Source of the DNA: a virus
Taxonomy: Duplodnaviria; Heunggongvirae; Uroviricota; Caudoviricetes
Strand: one strand, 5' to 3'
IMG/VR virus record: IMGVR_UViG_3300046543_000050
Length of the DNA: 64,000 nt
Shown: positions 3,382 to 50,733 of the stretch, piece by piece
How the letters are laid out: the number at the start of each line of letters is the position of its first letter
Position numbering within the stretch: position 1 is the stretch's first letter
Position numbers and translations under genes: made by a program
Notes under the pieces: generated by a model
Database searches by the model: none
The model's input: only the letters and a program-made list of their open reading frames with translations
What the model was told of the DNA's origin: nothing

Positions 3382-4056
3382 ATGTACCTTGCACGCAAAA
3401 TCAACAAGCGACTGAAACCGTTATATGACGCTCTGCGGGGTCGTGACACGATCCTGCACTCTGACCTTCGTAAGCTGATCCAGACCGCCATACGCCCGTT
3501 TCAAGCGCGCTGTGTGATGATTGGTGACGCTATCGCCACGGATGATTGTGGGATCAGTGGTGTCTTTGAACCTGAAGACCATCACACTCCGATCAAGATC
3601 GAAGTCCATGTGTCGAAGTTTAGCGACAAGTTGTATCTGTCGGATAAGCTGGTGAGGCACATGGTCTATGCCATCTTTCAATCACTCTCACACGAACTGA
3701 TTCACCAGTACCAGTACCGGTTTAGAGATGACCGCGCGCCGATCATGGCCTATATGCTTGGTGGTGGAGAACCGATGAATGAGAGGCAAGCGTATCTGGC
3801 AGAGATTGATGAAATCGACGCCTATGCACATGACATCGCCATCGAACTATTTCATTTCTTCCCCGGCAACTACATGGACCATCTTCGCAATGGTCGCTAC
3901 ACGAAATCCCTCGCATGGGCGATGTACGTCGAAGCCTTCCACGGAACCGACTGGAAAGACATTCGCAATCGTCTCTACAAGAAGGTTTACGAACACATCA
4001 CCCGGATTCGGGATAACCAAGAAGGATTCACATGTACGATCACTTTCTTTCGCTGA
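3382..4056 (+). CDS. hypothetical protein with HExxH (HELIH) zinc-metallopeptidase-like motif
   Basis: 224 aa; motif SHELIHQYQ; preceded by a stem-loop at 3346-3376. Confidence 0.5.
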   Translation: MYLARKINKRLKPLYDALRGRDTILHSDLRKLIQTAIRPFQARCVMIGDAIATDDCGISGVFEPEDHHTPIKIEVHVSKFSDKLYLSDKLVRHMVYAIFQSLSHELIHQYQYRFRDDRAPIMAYMLGGGEPMNERQAYLAEIDEIDAYAHDIAIELFHFFPGNYMDHLRNGRYTKSLAWAMYVEAFHGTDWKDIRNRLYKKVYEHITRIRDNQEGFTCTITFFR

Positions 4057-4217
4057 TGGACCTGATTCAGATTGCACTCATGTTGGCGGCATGTTACGCT
4101 TGCTACAAACGTGGTCAAAGCGTTGGTGCAACGGCAGTATTGGAAAAGCTTGAAGAACTCGGTGTTGTGCGTCTGCAACGCGCGGGTGATGAAGAAGTAG
4201 AAGACGAAGAAAAGTAG
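4032..4217 (+). CDS. small membrane protein with acidic tail (61 aa)
   Basis: Hydrophobic core ALMLAACYACY then EEVEDEEK tail. Confidence 0.35.
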   Translation: MYDHFLSLMDLIQIALMLAACYACYKRGQSVGATAVLEKLEELGVVRLQRAGDEEVEDEEK

Positions 4218-4225
4218 AGAAAGTA

Positions 4226-4254
4226 GTTGACCAAGTGTGGGAATGAGCGTATAA
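4226..4254 (+). promoter_or_regulatory. sigma70-like promoter TTGACC-N17-TATAAT; the spacer carries TGGGAAT, the reverse complement of the ATTCCCA half-site
   Basis: gttgaccaagtgtgggaatgagcgtataat; drives the tRNA-like RNA locus. Confidence 0.6.
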
Positions 4255-4361
4255 TCACACTTGTTGATTCGATGAAGGCCGCGCGGATTCAAGTACTTCG
4301 GTACTCCGCTCGTCCCGGCGCATGAAGCGCCATTTGAGGCGGTTGGCTTCATCGAATCGCA

Positions 4362-4466
4362 GTGAACGTGGCGAAATTGGTAGACGCGTCTGGCGGATAA
4401 TAGCGGGAAGTCAAAGCCCGTCCATGAAGCCGGAGACAATTGTGGGTTCGAGTCCCGCCGTTCACA
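4362..4466 (+). ncRNA. tRNA-like RNA: tRNA-Leu-type D-arm and canonical T-arm, but an over-long (53 nt) anticodon/variable region
   Basis: 7-bp acceptor GTGAACG/CGTTCAC; D-arm GCGAAATTGGTAGACGC; T-arm GTGGGTTCGAGTCCCGC; internal 6-bp helix TCTGGC/GCCGGA enclosing hairpin GCGGG-AAGTCAAAG-CCCGT; total ~105 nt. Confidence 0.55.
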
Positions 4467-4496
4467 TAATCCCTAAACCTTGTAGAGAAAGTAGAC

Positions 4497-4709
4497 ATGA
4501 AGAAGCAAGCAACCCAGAAGTCGAAGATCGAATCCATTCTGCGTAAAGGCCGTCTCCTGACGCCGACGCAAGCCAAGGCTTACGGCATCACCAAGCCGTC
4601 CGCGCGTGTCTGTGAACTGCGTGACGATGGTCTGAACATCGAAAGCACGACGAACAAATCGGGCAAGTTTGCGTGGAAGATGGGTCAATCGTACCCGTCG
4701 TTCCTGTAA
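4497..4709 (+). CDS. small basic helix-turn-helix DNA-binding protein (70 aa)
   Basis: RBS gagaaagtag; HTH-like segment LTPTQAKAYGITKPSARVCELRDDG. Confidence 0.5.
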   Translation: MKKQATQKSKIESILRKGRLLTPTQAKAYGITKPSARVCELRDDGLNIESTTNKSGKFAWKMGQSYPSFL

Positions 4710-5327: not shown

Positions 5328-5376
5328 AGCCCAAACATGTTTTCTCCGAAAGGGGTTGACACGTTTGGGCTTTTTG
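5328..5376 (+). terminator. rho-independent terminator whose 3' half doubles as the spacer of the next promoter (TTGACA 5356 / TATGAT 5379)
   Basis: AGCCCAAAC...GTTTGGGCT stem plus TTTTT; TTGACA lies in the loop, TATGAT 17 nt downstream. Confidence 0.6.
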
Positions 5377-5416
5377 TTTATGATTCACTCACTGGCTAAA
5401 CAACGGAGCGCACCAA

Positions 5417-6595
5417 ATGACCCAACTGCACATCGCTGAATACCGTGTCGAAGACCTCTACGTCCGCGTCAAGAAGTTCAACAACAAGGCTACGAAGCTT
5501 GGCCTTCCGCTGATCACGGTCGCTCAGACGGGCATCGAAGCCCGCGAATTCACCCGCGAAAACGCTCTGGGCGAACGCGAGAAGTTCTCGATCAACGTTG
5601 TGTCGGTTGAACTGACGGGCGAAATCCCGCGCATCGGCGGTTGGGCGATTCACTCGAAGGTTGAACCGTCGCAAGTGCCGGGTTCGAACTTCGTGTACAC
5701 GCAACCCCACTTCGACGCCGTTGAAGGTCTGCGCACGACGAAGATGATCTGCGAACACTGCAACATGAAACGTGGTCGTTCGCTGGTGTACCTGCTGCAA
5801 AACGTCGAGACGGGCGAACAGAAGTTGGTTGGCAAGTCGTGCCTGAAAGACTTCCTCCCGAACATCGATGTGGGATCGCTGCTGGCCTACCTCGAAAGCT
5901 TCCATACCCTGTCGTCGGGTGACACGTTGGACGAAGATTGCGAACGTGCTCCGCGTGAAGCCTTCGTCTACGGCGTGCGTGACCTGATCGCTGAATCGTT
6001 GGTCCTGATCAAGAAGTGGGGCTACAAGTCGAAGAAGATGGCCCGCGAACTGAATGACGACATGATCGCGACTGTCGAATGGGTTGCCCGGACGAACCCG
6101 AAGGACCGCAAGGAACTGTACCCGGTGGCAGAACTGACGCCGGTGTATGAATCGGGCGAAGTGGAGAAGGTTCTGGCCTTCCTGAATGATCTGAACCCGC
6201 GTGACGACTTCGGTTACAACCTGCAACTGGCAATCAAGCAAGTGAACGCGCCGGTCAAGATGTTCTCGTTCGTGGTCGCTGGCGTGAACATGTACCTGAA
6301 GTCGGTTGAGAAGGCCGCTGAAGCCGCCGTCAAGACGAATGAGTGGGTTGGTACGGTTGGCGAGCGCGTCGTCCTGAAGGGCCTGAAATTGGTCCGCTGC
6401 ACGCCGGTTGAAACGAACTTCGGTATGTCGTTCGTGACGGGCTTCGAAGATGAAGATGGCCGGACGTTCATCTGGTTTGCTTCGAAGAAGATTGGCGATG
6501 TGGGTGAAGTGATGGACCTGAAGACGACGATCAAGAAGCACGATGAATACAAGGGTGTCAAGCAGACTGTAATCACCCGAGCAGCAAAGCAGTAA
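5417..6595 (+). CDS. hypothetical protein (392 aa)
   Basis: RBS aacggagcg; long ORF; Cys pairs CEHC...C...C. Confidence 0.6.
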   Translation: MTQLHIAEYRVEDLYVRVKKFNNKATKLGLPLITVAQTGIEAREFTRENALGEREKFSINVVSVELTGEIPRIGGWAIHSKVEPSQVPGSNFVYTQPHFDAVEGLRTTKMICEHCNMKRGRSLVYLLQNVETGEQKLVGKSCLKDFLPNIDVGSLLAYLESFHTLSSGDTLDEDCERAPREAFVYGVRDLIAESLVLIKKWGYKSKKMARELNDDMIATVEWVARTNPKDRKELYPVAELTPVYESGEVEKVLAFLNDLNPRDDFGYNLQLAIKQVNAPVKMFSFVVAGVNMYLKSVEKAAEAAVKTNEWVGTVGERVVLKGLKLVRCTPVETNFGMSFVTGFEDEDGRTFIWFASKKIGDVGEVMDLKTTIKKHDEYKGVKQTVITRAAKQ

Positions 6596-36788: not shown

Positions 36789-37892
36789 ATGTCCCAACAA
36801 TATGATGCAGTAGTTTATCGTGGCCGGTTCCAAGGCTTCCACGATGCGCACCTTTCAACGATCCTGTTGGCATTGGAACATGGCAAGAAGGTTATCGTGG
36901 TCATTGGCAGTGCTGGCGAACCGCGAACCTTCTACCGCAATCCGTTCTATGCAGTTGAGCGGATTGAAGTGATCAAGGAATCGTTAACCTTCAATCCCCG
37001 TCGAGATGACATTTCATTTGTCGAGATTGAAGACAATCCGTCCGATGAAGTATGGGCTGATAACGTAGTTGCATCAGTGAACCGCGAAGTTGGTCGTCTG
37101 TTCGAAGATACCAGCAAAGAAACTCGCGTCATCAGCTACAAGGTCGCGCAGATTGGCTTCAAGAAAGATGCAGACTGCGTTCGTGATGTCGCATTGTTCC
37201 CGGATTGGGAGTACATCAGCACTCCGCACTTCGTACCTGTAAACGGGACCGATGTCCGCGACATCCTGTTCAGTGATAAACCACTATCGTTCTTGCGCGG
37301 CGTCTGTCCGTCTGGGACCGTCGAATTCTTCGAACGCTTCCGTAAGACCATCGACTTTGCCGAACTGATGGCAGAGAAGAAGTACGTCGAGAACTATCGC
37401 AAAGCATTCGCCAGTCTGGAATATGAACCCACGTTCGTCACTGGCGACAACGTTGCGTTTCAAGACGACACGGTTCTTCTGGTGAAGCGCAAGAATCATC
37501 CGGGCAAGGGTCTGTGGGCGCTTCCGGCTGGTTACTTCAATGCCGCTGACCGTGTGACCAAGCGTGGTGAAGTCGTCAAGGCTGACAAGACCGTGTTCGA
37601 CTGTGCAGTCCGCGAACTATTCGAAGAAACCAAGGCCAACGTGACGAAGGAACAACTTCGTGATGCCGTGGTCGGTAACGCGGTATTCGAAGCTGAAGGA
37701 CGCGATCCGCGTGGCCGTATCGTGACCCATGTGTTCGTCTATAACTTCGATGGTCAAGAAGTGTTCGATGTTGAAGCCGCCGATGATGCGGACGAAGTTC
37801 GACGCTTCCACATCCGCGAAGTTCACCGTCGAATGATGTATGCCGATCACTACGACATCGTTCGTTGGGCGTACTCGCAGTACAAGAACTGA
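36789..37892 (+). CDS. natV: bifunctional NMN adenylyltransferase / Nudix hydrolase (NadM-Nudix, NatV-like)
   Basis: N-terminal nucleotidyltransferase motif VYRGRFQGFHDAHLS (HxxH-type); C-terminal Nudix box ELFEETK; adjacent to NAMPT. Confidence 0.8.
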   Translation: MSQQYDAVVYRGRFQGFHDAHLSTILLALEHGKKVIVVIGSAGEPRTFYRNPFYAVERIEVIKESLTFNPRRDDISFVEIEDNPSDEVWADNVVASVNREVGRLFEDTSKETRVISYKVAQIGFKKDADCVRDVALFPDWEYISTPHFVPVNGTDVRDILFSDKPLSFLRGVCPSGTVEFFERFRKTIDFAELMAEKKYVENYRKAFASLEYEPTFVTGDNVAFQDDTVLLVKRKNHPGKGLWALPAGYFNAADRVTKRGEVVKADKTVFDCAVRELFEETKANVTKEQLRDAVVGNAVFEAEGRDPRGRIVTHVFVYNFDGQEVFDVEAADDADEVRRFHIREVHRRMMYADHYDIVRWAYSQYKN

Positions 37893-37917
37893 ACAACTAC
37901 AGGAAACCAAGAGCAAC

Positions 37918-39273
37918 ATGTACTTTCAGAATATCCAACTAGAACAAAACTTCGTCCTTGAATCGGACTCCTACAAGTACTCGCACGTCCCGGAAGTCTA
38001 CCCGGAAGGCACTGAAGCATTGCACGCGTATCTGTCGGCGCGCGTGAAGGGTTCGCGTGTGGTGCAGTTCGGTCTTCAGATGTGGATCAAGAAGAAGCTA
38101 CTGGCCCCGATCACGCGTCGCATGGTCGATGAAGCCGAAGTATTCATGACGAAGCATATCGGTCCCGGTGGCTTCAACCGTGCGATGTGGGACCGCATCG
38201 TGAACTACTATGGCGGTTTCATTCCGCTGACGATCCGTGGTCTGCCCGAAGGTACGGTCACGGATAGCTACGATACGTTGGTCACGGTTGAGTGTGATGA
38301 TCCGGTTTGTTTCCCGCTGGCACAGTTCATCGAAGCTTCGTTGCAATCCGACCTCTGGTACAGCACGACCATCGCGACGAACGATCTGGAAAACTACGAA
38401 GTCGCCAAGTCGCATTTCAACTTGTTCTCCGATCAACCGTTCCTGTTGCCGTTCATGTTGCATGACTTCGGTGCGCGCGGCGTGACCTGTGAAGAACAAC
38501 GTCAGATCGGCGGCGCTGCGCACTTGGTGTTCTTCCAAGGTTCGGACACGATCAGCGGCATCCGTGCAGCGAATCTGTTCTACAACTGTGAGATGGCCGG
38601 TTACAGCGTCCGCGCGACCGAACATAGTATCCAGTGCGCCTACGGCCCCGAAGGGCAAGAAGCCTACATCCAACGCGTTCTGGATGCACATGCGAAGCCG
38701 GGTAACATCGTGTCGCTGGTGCTCGATGGCTACAACGTCTGGCGTGAGGCTGAACTGCTGTGTACGAAGTTCAAGCAACAGATCATCGATAGTGGCGCGA
38801 AGATCGTCTTCCGTCCTGATTCGGGCGACATGTTCGAAGTGGTTCCGCGTCTTCTGGAAATGCAAGCTGAAGCGTTCGGCTACACGGTGAACAGCAAGAA
38901 GAAAAAGGTCATCAACCATGTCGGCCTGATCCAAGGTGACGGCATCGACAAGACGACTTTCATGTTGATGATGCAGAAGGTTGTCTCGCTTGGCTATGCC
39001 CCTGAGTGCGTCGTCATGGGTTCTGGTGGCGGTCTGCTTCAGAAGGTCAACCGTGATACCCTGAAGTTCGCACAGAAGGCCGCTGCGATCAAGATCAATG
39101 GTAAGTGGATCGACGTGTTCAAAGACCCCATTACCGATCCGGGCAAGAAGTCGAAGACCGGTCTACAAGACGATCCGCGATTCGTGACCTTCTACACGGT
39201 TGACGAAGGTTTGATGGTCGATGAATCACTGGCGACGATTCGTGAACGTGCGTTGGCTGGCGCTGTGGTGTAA
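37918..39273 (+). CDS. nadV: nicotinamide phosphoribosyltransferase (NAMPT / NadV)
   Basis: NFVLESDSYKYSH N-terminal NAMPT motif; ~451 aa; follows the NMNAT gene. Confidence 0.8.
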   Translation: MYFQNIQLEQNFVLESDSYKYSHVPEVYPEGTEALHAYLSARVKGSRVVQFGLQMWIKKKLLAPITRRMVDEAEVFMTKHIGPGGFNRAMWDRIVNYYGGFIPLTIRGLPEGTVTDSYDTLVTVECDDPVCFPLAQFIEASLQSDLWYSTTIATNDLENYEVAKSHFNLFSDQPFLLPFMLHDFGARGVTCEEQRQIGGAAHLVFFQGSDTISGIRAANLFYNCEMAGYSVRATEHSIQCAYGPEGQEAYIQRVLDAHAKPGNIVSLVLDGYNVWREAELLCTKFKQQIIDSGAKIVFRPDSGDMFEVVPRLLEMQAEAFGYTVNSKKKKVINHVGLIQGDGIDKTTFMLMMQKVVSLGYAPECVVMGSGGGLLQKVNRDTLKFAQKAAAIKINGKWIDVFKDPITDPGKKSKTGLQDDPRFVTFYTVDEGLMVDESLATIRERALAGAVV

Positions 39274-49359: not shown

Positions 49360-50733
49360 ATGACAGTACTTGAAATCCTGAATCAAATCGCAGCAACCCC
49401 GAAGAAGACTGAGAAGGAAGCAATCCTCGCATCGCATGTCGAAAATCCAGTCCTCTCGAAAGTGTTCTATCTGGCTTATCAACCAACCATCAACTTCTAC
49501 ACGAAGCGCATCCCGGCGTTCGCGACGAACACAGGTGCAACCGTGTTTGATGATGGCCCGATGTCCCTCGAAGAAGCTTTGGACTCCATCCTGAAGGTTC
49601 TGGCCGGTCGCAAGCTTACCGGCAGCGCGGCATCTTCGCACCTGTCCAGTCTCCTGTCGCAAGTCTCCCCGGACGATGCTGAAGTCCTCTCGCGCGTGGT
49701 GCTGCGTGATCTGCGTATCGACGCGGGCGCAAACACGGCAAACAAGGTCTGGAAGGGGCTGGTGCTCGATGTTCCCTACATGCGGTGCAGTCTACCCAAG
49801 GAAGTCGATCTGAAGGCGTTTCCGTGGGTCACAGGGCTATATTCGCAGTTGAAGTCTGATGGCTCATTCACGAACGTCAACGTCTATGGTGACGGCGATG
49901 TCGAGTACATGACCCGCAATGGCAACATCTACCCGGGCGAAGACTTCGCGGATGTAACCGTGTCGTTCCAACGCGCCCCGGCTGTCGGCTTCCAGTACCA
50001 CGGCGAACTGACGGTGTACAAAGATGGCGAACTTCTCGAACGTGCAGAAGGTAATGGCGTCCTGAACAAGATTCAACAGGGAAAGTCGAAGCTTCCGGCT
50101 GGCTACACGATTCGCTTCACGGCATGGGACATGATTCCCATCGAAGAAGCCAAGCCCAAGAGCAAGTACGAAGTCCCGTATGCGGTTCGTCTCGCGCAAC
50201 TTGAAGGTCTGGGTCTGTCGGGTGCTGTCGAAGTCGTAGAGACGCGCGTAGTCCACACGATCCGCGAAGCCTACGAACACTATCAGGAACAGTTGGCCCT
50301 TGGTCTGGAAGGCACGATCCTGAAAGACCCGTCCGGGTTCTGGGAAGATACGACCTCGCGCAAGCAAGTCAAGTTCAAGTTGGACGTGACCGTTGAGCTT
50401 GAGTGTGTCGGCTTCAATCCGGGTAAGGGCAAGAATGCCAAGACCTTCGGTTCGGCGATCCTTCGTTCTTCCGATGGTCTACTGACCGTGAACTGTTCGG
50501 GCTTCAAAGACAAAGACCGTCAGTACATCTCGGACAACCGCGAAGACTTCCTGAACACGATCTGGGCTGTCACGGCGAACGCGATGACCAAGGTCCGCAA
50601 AGATGGAACCCGTAGTCTGTTTCTCCCGCGCTATGTCGAACAACGCAATGACAAGCAAGACGCTGATTCACTCGAACGCATCGTCGCTCAGTTTGAATCG
50701 GCAGTGACAAACCTCGAATCTCTGATCGCGTAA
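49360..50733 (+). CDS. 30: ATP-dependent DNA ligase (T4 gp30 homologue)
   Basis: N-terminus MTVLEILNQIAATPKKTEKEAILASH matches T4 ligase MILKILNEIASIGSTKQKQAILEKN; adenylation motif LKSDGSF (KxDG). Confidence 0.9.
   Translation: MTVLEILNQIAATPKKTEKEAILASHVENPVLSKVFYLAYQPTINFYTKRIPAFATNTGATVFDDGPMSLEEALDSILKVLAGRKLTGSAASSHLSSLLSQVSPDDAEVLSRVVLRDLRIDAGANTANKVWKGLVLDVPYMRCSLPKEVDLKAFPWVTGLYSQLKSDGSFTNVNVYGDGDVEYMTRNGNIYPGEDFADVTVSFQRAPAVGFQYHGELTVYKDGELLERAEGNGVLNKIQQGKSKLPAGYTIRFTAWDMIPIEEAKPKSKYEVPYAVRLAQLEGLGLSGAVEVVETRVVHTIREAYEHYQEQLALGLEGTILKDPSGFWEDTTSRKQVKFKLDVTVELECVGFNPGKGKNAKTFGSAILRSSDGLLTVNCSGFKDKDRQYISDNREDFLNTIWAVTANAMTKVRKDGTRSLFLPRYVEQRNDKQDADSLERIVAQFESAVTNLESLIA

Follow-up and report, generated by a model that had tools for sequence, protein, structure and literature searches.

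A tRNA-Leu-derived RNA with an exchangeable arm in place of the anticodon stem-loop in a T4-like phage

Phage transfer RNA (tRNA) genes are usually read as decoders that serve codon supply or anti-defence, and candidates that fail tRNA finders are dropped during annotation. Transfer-messenger RNA (tmRNA) and the bacterial Y RNA YrlA join a tRNA elbow/acceptor module to a functional module that is not tRNA. To our knowledge, neither of the stable RNAs C and D of phage T4 decodes. [quoted passage not shown] Here we analyse a 105-nt RNA encoded within a 64,000-nt stretch of a large T4-like phage (IMG/VR record IMGVR_UViG_3300046543_000050), referred to below as the window. Its Leu-type tRNA body is kept but its over-long anticodon arm is replaced wholesale in related phages, and the product is thus probably a stable, non-decoding RNA. 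We read it, with about even confidence, as a tRNA-Leu-derived, non-decoding scaffold on which an exchangeable arm is presented. Full-text literature searches turned up no account of RNAs like this one, and one survey of tRNA-like phage motifs contained no comparable structure.

The tRNA-like unit, its promoter and its leader

The RNA, its parts and the elements that precede it are as follows.

4227..4255 (+): sigma-70-type early promoter, TTGACC-N17-TATAAT, matching 11 of 12 consensus positions
4262..4361 (+): transcribed leader, predicted to fold as a Y-shaped three-way junction with a 14+4-bp closing helix and two hairpins
4362..4466 (+): tRNA-Leu-derived scaffold RNA, 105 nt (Rfam RF00005, 41.6 bits; family model R1, 54.6 bits)
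4362-4368 / 4459-4465 (+): acceptor stem, GTGAACG / CGTTCAC, seven perfect pairs
4369-4370 (+): U8 and G9
4371-4387 (+): D-arm, GCGAAATTGGTAGACGC
4388 (+): N26
4389..4434 (+): elongated anticodon-arm module, 46 nt, from the sequence and from the minimum free energy (MFE) and centroid folds
4389-4394 / 4429-4434 (+): basal helix, 6 bp, TCTGGC / GCCGGA, homologous to the anticodon stem of the family
4395-4402 / 4422-4428 (+): 8x7 internal loop, GGAUAAUA / CCAUGAA, from sequence and fold
4403-4407 / 4417-4421 (+): apical helix, 5 bp, GCGGG / CCCGT, from sequence and fold
4408-4416 (+): apical 9-nt loop, AAGTCAAAG (in RNA form AAGUCAAAG), with CAA at loop positions 5-7
4435-4441 (+): variable region
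4442-4458 (+): T-arm, GTGGGTTCGAGTCCCGC
4466 (+): discriminator A

A preliminary description of this stretch had proposed a tRNA-derived RNA of about 105 nt with its own promoter and structured leader, unable to fold as a canonical tRNA, and our results support that proposal. The Rfam tRNA model RF00005 scored 41.6 bits on 4362-4466, above its gathering score of 29 (E = 2e-5 for the 64-kb window). The alignment spans model positions 1-71, and at the anticodon arm it has to pass over 42 inserted nucleotides against the 11 that the model expects. By contrast, ARAGORN with default settings called no tRNA in the window. None of ARAGORN, the Rfam model and folding gave a standard-length tRNA.

The perfect acceptor stem, the D-arm close to that of bacterial tRNA-Leu and the textbook T-arm that had been described are all present in the sequence. 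The window copy carries U8, A14, A15:U48, G18G19, A20a and A73, and its variable region is only 7 nt, with no long variable arm. The D-to-T spacing is over-long as claimed, although it measures 54 nt (4388-4441) rather than 53 nt. The fold lacks the 5-bp anticodon stem and 7-nt loop with U33 and purine 37 of a decoding tRNA; instead, sequence, MFE and centroid fold agree on the 6-bp helix enclosing the GCGGG/CCCGT hairpin, exactly as first drawn. CAA does lie in a 9-nt loop but is only roughly centred there.

The promoter was also correctly recognised, its true position being one base to the right of the 4226-4254 originally given. TTGACC-N17-TA(T/C)AAT is kept in nine of nine homologues. With the transcription start inferred from the -10 box, the leader of about 100 nt has an MFE of -45 kcal/mol (z = -3.5), a stability that none of 200 shuffles attained. 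It consists of a long-range helix (G4266-C4279 / G4346-C4359) with two hairpins inside, as had been described apart from slight corrections of coordinates. In the predicted fold of the 245-nt transcript, the leader and the tRNA-like unit are separate domains. The leader helix ends at A4361 and abuts G4362 of the acceptor stem with no linker. The 100-nt leader is specific to this phage: that of the closest relative, L035, has 10 nt, and other relatives have unrelated leader modules. The window's leader equals the 10-nt leader of L035 plus an insert, the first nucleotides of which are also found in L038.

Conservation of the scaffold and exchange of the arm

Eight further distinct homologues were found at the same locus in T4-like relatives, with a tRNA-like RNA of 90-140 nt behind the same promoter. 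Contigs L001-L004 were found in IMG/VR through gp41 and the adjacent 224-aa protein, and L035-L042 through the downstream helix-turn-helix (HTH) protein in a large protein collection (P0001-P0006). All relatives share the gene order uvsX, small open reading frame (ORF), gp41, 224-aa ORF, 53-69-aa ORF, intergenic cassette and HTH_39 gene. A blastn search of the locus against deposited phages gave no match, and the identity of gp41 to that of the nearest deposited phages is only about 55%.

In a model-guided alignment of the nine copies, window included, 94.5% of pair cells were paired, compared with 77% in shuffles and 35-44% with slid partners. Compensatory changes were present in 18 of the 28 pairs, and none of 500 shuffles reached the observed values on any measure. 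A clean six-sequence alignment gave 97% paired cells, with 17/28 pairs changed on both sides. Pairing is complete (100%) in the acceptor, D and T helices of all nine homologues, compensatory changes included, and the Leu-type tertiary core (U8, A14, A15, G18G19, A20a and U48) is invariant in every member. Compensatory changes extend into the arm, affecting three of five pairs in the basal helix and four of five at the base of the inserted helix. Family model R1 scored genuine phage tRNA-Leu genes (T4 tRNA-Leu and the L043 array) at 52-64 bits and the window copy at 54.6 bits. Since real tRNA-Leu genes score so highly with R1, the body of the RNA is clearly derived from tRNA-Leu. Taken together, the covariation and the conserved scaffold indicate that the RNA is neither a pseudogene nor a canonical decoder.

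Decay was nevertheless considered. A tRNA-Leu pseudogene collecting junk insertions in a non-essential intergenic region could explain why the centre is hypervariable in sequence and 39-89 nt long among close relatives, why the window's centre lacks a motif conserved in the others, and why its thermodynamic z-score (-1.3) is unremarkable. The homologues, which the preliminary description had suggested might expose a degenerate pseudogene, did not do so. In the nine diverged copies the three tRNA helices remain fully paired and compensatory changes are numerous, the tertiary-core nucleotides do not vary and the near-consensus promoter is conserved. The inserted arms are all well-formed helices and not random sequence. 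The covariation largely refutes decay, which we consider the least probable of the explanations weighed here.

Pairwise comparison of the relatives shows that what lies above the basal helix of the arm is a module exchanged between related phages. The window and L035 are 96% identical in both the upstream and the downstream gene and 94% identical in the scaffold, whilst their centres are only 50% identical; above a common CUGG/CCGG helix, the centre has in effect been replaced. L002 and L003 likewise share 96% identity in the upstream gene, 94% in the downstream gene, 73% in the scaffold and 52% in the centre. Every inserted arm among the homologues is a well-formed helix, and smaller units recur within them. 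The apical sub-hairpin CGACAGGGGAAATTGTCG is identical in L001 and L037, which have different scaffolds, and L002 and L042 share the sub-hairpin GCACGCYG-NAU-RGCGUAAUCC with one C-G to U-A compensatory change. Seven other occurrences of the 18-nt CGACAGGGGAAATTGTCG in viral contigs lie inside apparent protein-coding sequence and were set aside as unrelated.

Modules also recur outside the arm. A Y-shaped module of about 53 nt, GGGUAG-AGCGAGC...GCCAGUUAUCGGGAAC...CGA-CUACCC, serves as trailer in L001 (8533-8585), L003 and L039 and as leader in L037 (1108-1158). It has two compensatory pairs and no Rfam match, and it is absent from the window. Neither this trailer/leader module nor the apical sub-module recurs elsewhere in the window.

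Seven of the nine members have a 5x4 internal loop (5' W-UAGUA-G / 3' C-GRGG-M) above the 5-bp equivalent of the anticodon stem. The sarcin-ricin (S/R) prototype is an asymmetric 5x4 loop with strand 1 U2-A3-G4(bulged)-U5-A6 and strand 2 G9-A10-(A/C)11-N12, containing a trans Hoogsteen/sugar-edge (tHS) A6-G9 pair and a trans Watson-Crick/Hoogsteen (tWH) U5-A10 pair (PMC8450098). The relatives' strand UAGUA is identical to strand 1, exactly so in 7/9. In strand 2, G9 is kept in seven of seven and A10 in four of seven (G in the other three), and the GG at positions 11-12 is atypical. Because of the A10 to G changes and the GG, the assignment can only be called S/R-like. The same 5' strand may also be read as N32-U33-AGU-A37, so that in appearance the relatives' loop is close to a split anticodon loop as well as to a sarcin-ricin motif. 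The UAGUA/GRGG loop is missing from L002 (CGA/GAA) and from the window, whose 8x7 loop has A at the position of the bulged G. This difference indicates that the window's arm is a different module. A hammerhead or K-turn reading of CUGACGAG...CUGAA in L002 was rejected: it is absent in other members, U stands at the equivalent of A15.1, and the scans gave no match to a ribozyme family.

The exact D-arm/anticodon-stem pattern had no match in viral contigs, metagenome contigs scanned with the HTH alignment gave no relatives, and an HTH protein search in viral contigs returned only contigs already known. Family-signature DNA scans of metagenome and genome collections gave mostly chance matches. 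L047-L049 and L051 were discarded because each is an ordinary tRNA that merely has the pattern's 5' half upstream of it, and L044 and L050 contain no tRNA inside. Only L045 and L046 looked related. These contain a divergent 118-nt tRNA-like homologue (L045:1116-1232, L046:2840-2956 (minus strand)) with no recognisable anticodon stem, and they are unrelated AT-rich siphovirus-like contigs with a RecE-like exonuclease, a Mom-like protein, RusA and a methyltransferase. The motif AUAGUAG...CGA is kept across the inserted helix of this RNA. As the 3' CGA lay outside the search pattern, it gives some independent support for the paired motif.

Decoding, charging and a role in cis

Two of the functions first suggested for the RNA involve decoding. 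A noncanonical decoder is unlikely: the arm presenting CAA is about 11 bp too long, and CAA is not conserved even in L035. We estimate the chance that a 9-nt loop contains a U-NNN-R match to any of the six Leu anticodons at about 6%, and the CAA loop was rejected as an anticodon. In no family member does a 7-nt anticodon loop stand at the usual distance from the elbow.

A tRNA with an intron-like insertion was the other suggestion. With introns allowed, ARAGORN calls six of the nine members as tRNA-Thr(AGU), the anticodon being followed immediately by an insert of 17-48 nt, and the conserved strand W-U-AGU-A obeys anticodon-loop grammar (U33, purine 37). If a phage or host activity removed the short insert, a true decoder would result, a tRNA(AGU) in most relatives. 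In line with this, an uninterrupted 7-nt loop, G-U-AGU-A-G, occurs on a Leu-type scaffold of L043, an unrelated jumbo phage, and in the viral contig L059 the loop halves CUU and AAAA of tRNA-Leu(UAA) are parted by a 33-nt hairpin. However, the same ARAGORN setting gives for the window only a 'His-AUG' with C33, which is not credible, and inconsistent calls for L002 and L037. A bulge-helix-bulge (BHB; 3-4-3) cannot be drawn by inspection, and an archaeal BHB intron was rejected on this basis. Inserts of 17-48 nt fall short of group I introns by an order of magnitude, and sensitive Rfam scans (E<=10) found no intron or ribozyme family. RNA ligase, Pnk, RtcB and splicing-endonuclease domains were absent from the 30 ORFs scanned, with some 70 small ORFs outside the scan. 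Furthermore, the discriminator, the 1:72 pair and the type of variable arm vary in a manner unlike orthologous tRNAs of the same identity, and the intron-side strand GRGG is conserved as strongly as the exon side. An insertion thus stays formally possible for six relatives but fails for the window's copy. We consider removal of an intron-like insert quite improbable for the family and give it very low confidence for the window copy, where it is less probable than in the relatives.

The ends of the molecule bear on whether it is aminoacylated. Across the nine members the discriminator is A in five, C in three and U in one, and the 1:72 pair is G-C, A-U, U-A or C-G. Some members form a 13-19-nt hairpin in the variable region, which has 6-7 nt in the window and L035. 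Position -1 can pair with position 73 in 6/9 members, which is weak evidence given that about 3.4 are expected by chance. All three C73 members have G-1:C73, a histidine-tRNA signature, together with a -2:74 pair, resulting in 9-bp acceptor helices. The -1:73 pairing does not point to a conserved free NCCA end.

E. coli leucyl-tRNA synthetase (LeuRS) requires A73, A15:U48, G18G19 and A20a, whilst the anticodon and variable arms are dispensable (PMC9976931). Variants of tRNA-Leu without an anticodon arm are still charged, and C73 abolishes charging (PMC9976931). The window copy has all of these E. coli-type Leu identity elements together with U8:A14, although the E. coli rules may not be those of the host, and from its sequence charging is conceivable. 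A non-decoding mimic to which CCA is added and leucine attached by LeuRS could act as a non-ribosomal leucyl donor or as a sink for LeuRS or EF-Tu, and the charging of variants that lack the anticodon arm agrees with this. Yet CCA is not encoded, and A73 is present in only five of nine members, the others having C73 paired with G-1 (three) or U73 (one). As four of nine members lack A73, charging by LeuRS cannot be the conserved function. We regard an aminoacylated mimic as improbable, if less so than removal of an intron.

The surroundings of the cassette are relevant to a role in cis, and the flanking features are as follows.

4032..4217 (+): upstream small ORF from the ORF list, 61 aa, with a hydrophobic N-terminus and an acidic tail; it stops just 5' of the cassette
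4214..4226 (+): left copy of a 13-nt direct repeat, GTAGAGAAAGTAG, overlapping the stop codon of the upstream ORF and adjoining the -35 box
4467..4496 (+): short trailer, in which the right GTAGAGAAAGTAG copy (4482-4494) provides the ribosome-binding region for the gene that follows
4497..4709 (+): downstream gene, encoding a winged-helix protein of 70 aa, HTH_39 (Pfam PF14090, E = 7e-8; phrog_4973)

HTH_39 is always the next gene 3' of the cassette in homologous contigs. No terminator-like site was found between 4466 and 4497, and the next promoter-like site on the plus strand after the cassette promoter is at 5356-5384. The HTH_39 gene is therefore probably co-transcribed with the RNA from the cassette promoter. 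The trailer has no encoded CCA and, including the HTH ribosome-binding site, is unpaired in the transcript fold.

The RNA could hence be a processing or punctuation element in the 5' untranslated region of the HTH gene, where RNase P and 3' tRNA-processing enzymes would cut the early transcript and the arm would have no function. The cut would fix the 5' end and the stability of the HTH mRNA and free the leader. The cassette promoter is the only one upstream of the HTH gene, with no terminator in between, and it is kept in L041 though a small ORF takes the place of the RNA there. The unpaired HTH ribosome-binding site and the variable leader and trailer modules around the tRNA-like unit also suit a role in cis. 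However, a mere cleavage signal would need no anticodon-arm region, yet base pairs covary in the basal helix and at the base of the inserted helix. The 5x4 internal loop is kept on both strands in 7/9, and apical sub-modules are identical or covarying across diverged scaffolds. Owing to the covariation in the arm, the conserved two-stranded loop and the conserved sub-modules, we rate this main rival below the scaffold reading and regard it as unlikely, though less so than charging.

In L041 (2650-3004), a more distant relative with an HTH protein 59% identical, TTGACG-N17-TATAAT is followed by a 63-aa ORF and there is no tRNA-like RNA. The promoter slot is thus conserved while its cargo differs.

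Under the scaffold reading, the host RNA polymerase would transcribe the RNA early, as the first part of a transcript running into the HTH gene. The tRNA body would fold into an L shape with an acceptor/T stack and an elbow formed by the D- and T-loops, and a 46-nt coaxial arm would stand in place of the 17-nt anticodon stem-loop. This body would act as a handle for processing and stability, with RNase P cutting the 5' end, trimming of the 3' end and protection from decay. In E. coli, the engineered tRNA scaffold works in just this manner (PMC3753655). A discrete species of about 105 nt would accumulate and the structured leader would be released. The elongated arm would be the functional end: acting in trans as a decoy or sponge, it would bind some factor of the host or the phage, its specificity set by whichever arm module is present. 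The function as a stable binder or decoy is our inference.

Several observations weigh against the scaffold reading. The lack of a terminator before the HTH gene would permit a purely cis role, and the 105-nt unit by itself folds with an unremarkable z-score. The window's leader without a linker and the -1:73 pairing are atypical for an RNase P substrate. The window's arm, lacking the loop motif of its relatives, could be a derived or partly disabled copy.

An extension of the scaffold reading is possible, and we hold it tentatively. The tRNA body may be a natural display scaffold, matured by the tRNA-processing machinery and maybe chargeable, whose aptamer-like arms for host factors are swapped between co-infecting phages by recombination in the scaffold as part of an arms race with the host. 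The 32 further scaffolds described below would then represent a widespread and unannotated class of phage effector RNA that escapes tRNA finders.

The cassette also carries marks at its borders. The two exact copies of GTAGAGAAAGTAG (4214-4226 and 4482-4494) lie 268 bp apart and flank all of it, from promoter through leader and RNA to trailer; by chance, 0.56 matches at <=2 mismatches are expected. Relatives have flanking repeat pairs of their own, for example two copies of GAAGAAAAGTAGA in L037 and two of GAAGAAAAGTAGAA in L002, and a near-copy of the GTAGAGAAAGTAG motif stands 5' of the ATG at 49360 in the window. The pair may have arisen as a target-site-like duplication when the cassette was inserted, or it may represent a recurrent gene-boundary/ribosome-binding motif. 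In the close relative L004 (7201-7690) an extra ORF directly follows gp41, and an HNH-like motif (IDHIDGDGYNNRMENLRLVTQAENAKN) seen by eye suggests a putative homing endonuclease inserted near the locus.

The upstream ORF is matched by a 53-69-aa ORF called at the same position in all syntenic contigs, and Pfam and PHROG searches gave it no family match. The site at 5356-5384 is a second near-consensus promoter, TTGACA-N17-TATGAT, 5' of a 392-aa protein of unknown function (phrog_2319; region 5356-6595). The window as a whole has a GC content of 52% and encodes UvsX, a gp41-type helicase, RNR, RNase H, gp32, DNA ligase, a baseplate protein, NAMPT and ThyX. It also contains an NAD-salvage pair, an NMNAT-like cytidylyltransferase fused to Nudix (36789-37892) and NAMPT (37840-39273).

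Wider occurrence and comparison with known systems

Viral contigs were searched with a pattern in which the Leu-type D-arm and T-arm stand further apart than the centre of any normal tRNA-Leu would allow. The pattern was found in 52 IMG/VR contigs (L053-L104), comprising 32 distinct sequences with centres of 44-73 nt. About 24 have perfect acceptor stems, and almost none of the set is called by ARAGORN at default settings. Their R1 scores of 38-65 bits are in the same range as that of the window copy. The set is heterogeneous, including normal anticodon arms with a very long variable arm, hairpin-split anticodon loops (L059) and elongated anticodon arms (L077). Over-long tRNA-like genes in viral metagenomes are thus missed by current pipelines.

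Some of these scaffolds have features of their own. Non-Leu anticodon loops occur with variable arms of at least 30 nt: CU-UGG-AA in L073, L096 and L100, CU-UGC-AA in L075, and CU-CAU-CA in L095 and L098. The L056 type is present in at least 15 contigs of about 10-65 kb, and L074 and L080 each contain two tandem copies of an over-long scaffold. The L059 element (L059:118-235, minus strand) has CUU and AAAA halves with a perfect 33-nt hairpin between U34 and A35, the removal of which would rebuild the CU-UAA-AA loop of tRNA-Leu(UAA). This insertion site is that of the group I intron in cyanobacterial tRNA-Leu, although the insert is far too short to be one. The Leu-type D/T element of L043 (6360-6447, minus strand) lies in an array of 21 tRNAs on a 350-kb jumbo-phage contig, and its G-U-AGU-A-G loop is closed by a 5-bp stem. 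Its acceptor strands are unpaired, but a 6-bp helix is present 6 nt outside them on either side. A tRNA-Ser with anticodon ACU (A34) belongs to this array as well.

The nearest relatives of the window RNA by descent are bacterial and phage tRNA-Leu (RF00005, type II). It shares with them the 7-bp acceptor, U8, a 3-bp D-stem with the loop AAAUUGGUAGA, the T-arm GGUUCGAGUCC and A73, and R1 scores the phage genes of T4, L043 and L006 equal to or above it. It differs in having a 46-nt arm where tRNA-Leu has a 17-nt anticodon stem-loop, with 105 nt in total and no long variable arm. It also has its own promoter and 100-nt leader and lies outside any tRNA cluster. The tRNA body is under strong structural selection here, whilst its decoding end has been swapped for an exchangeable module.

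Intron-containing tRNAs (archaeal and eukaryal at 37/38; bacterial group I in tRNA-Leu(UAA)) are likewise extended in the anticodon loop or arm, and the flanking halves of six relatives could rebuild a 7-nt loop. Those of the window copy could not, and neither a BHB motif, a group I core nor splicing enzymes were found at this locus or among the scanned ORFs. Compared with tmRNA and YrlA, the topology of the window RNA is not permuted, and it has no mRNA-like domain and no Ro-binding helix. The tmRNA model matched only 17-nt T-arm fragments (16-17 bits; gathering score 47). Rfam scans gave no Y RNA match, and no Rfam family other than tRNA matched beyond T-arm fragments.

The last function put forward in the preliminary description, a stable RNA like C and D of T4 (species 1 and 2; rnaC and rnaD), fits best, as an analogy and not as homology. 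These RNAs are also phage-encoded and longer than 100 nt, with their function unknown, and rnaC has a tRNA-like acceptor/T-arm domain as does the window RNA. They are situated inside a tRNA gene cluster, whereas the window RNA stands alone beside replication genes with a promoter of its own. Homology was rejected: rnaC scored 19.7 bits with R1, within the range of unrelated T4 tRNAs, and rnaD gave no coding-strand match, only 3.1 bits (E=2.2) on the opposite strand. The likeness would therefore be one of function only and not of family membership. Rfam has no family for rnaC or rnaD. In rnaC (L052:4909-5047) the octamer GAGUAGCG occurs twice, and the 3' two-thirds form an acceptor/T-arm domain with a weak Rfam tRNA-Sec match (17.5 bits). 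Should the arm of the window RNA prove to bind a host factor, a role open to testing would be suggested for the T4 stable RNAs too, which have long gone unexplained.

In architecture, the window RNA is the same as the engineered tRNA scaffold, which retains the acceptor, T- and D-arms and takes up a hairpin insert at the anticodon stem-loop. The engineered scaffold is man-made, whilst the window RNA is natural and evolves by module exchange. The natural module swaps at this locus form a ready-made experimental set. Were its arm to bind a host factor, the window RNA would represent a new kind of effector RNA in phages and a counterpart in nature to the engineered scaffold.

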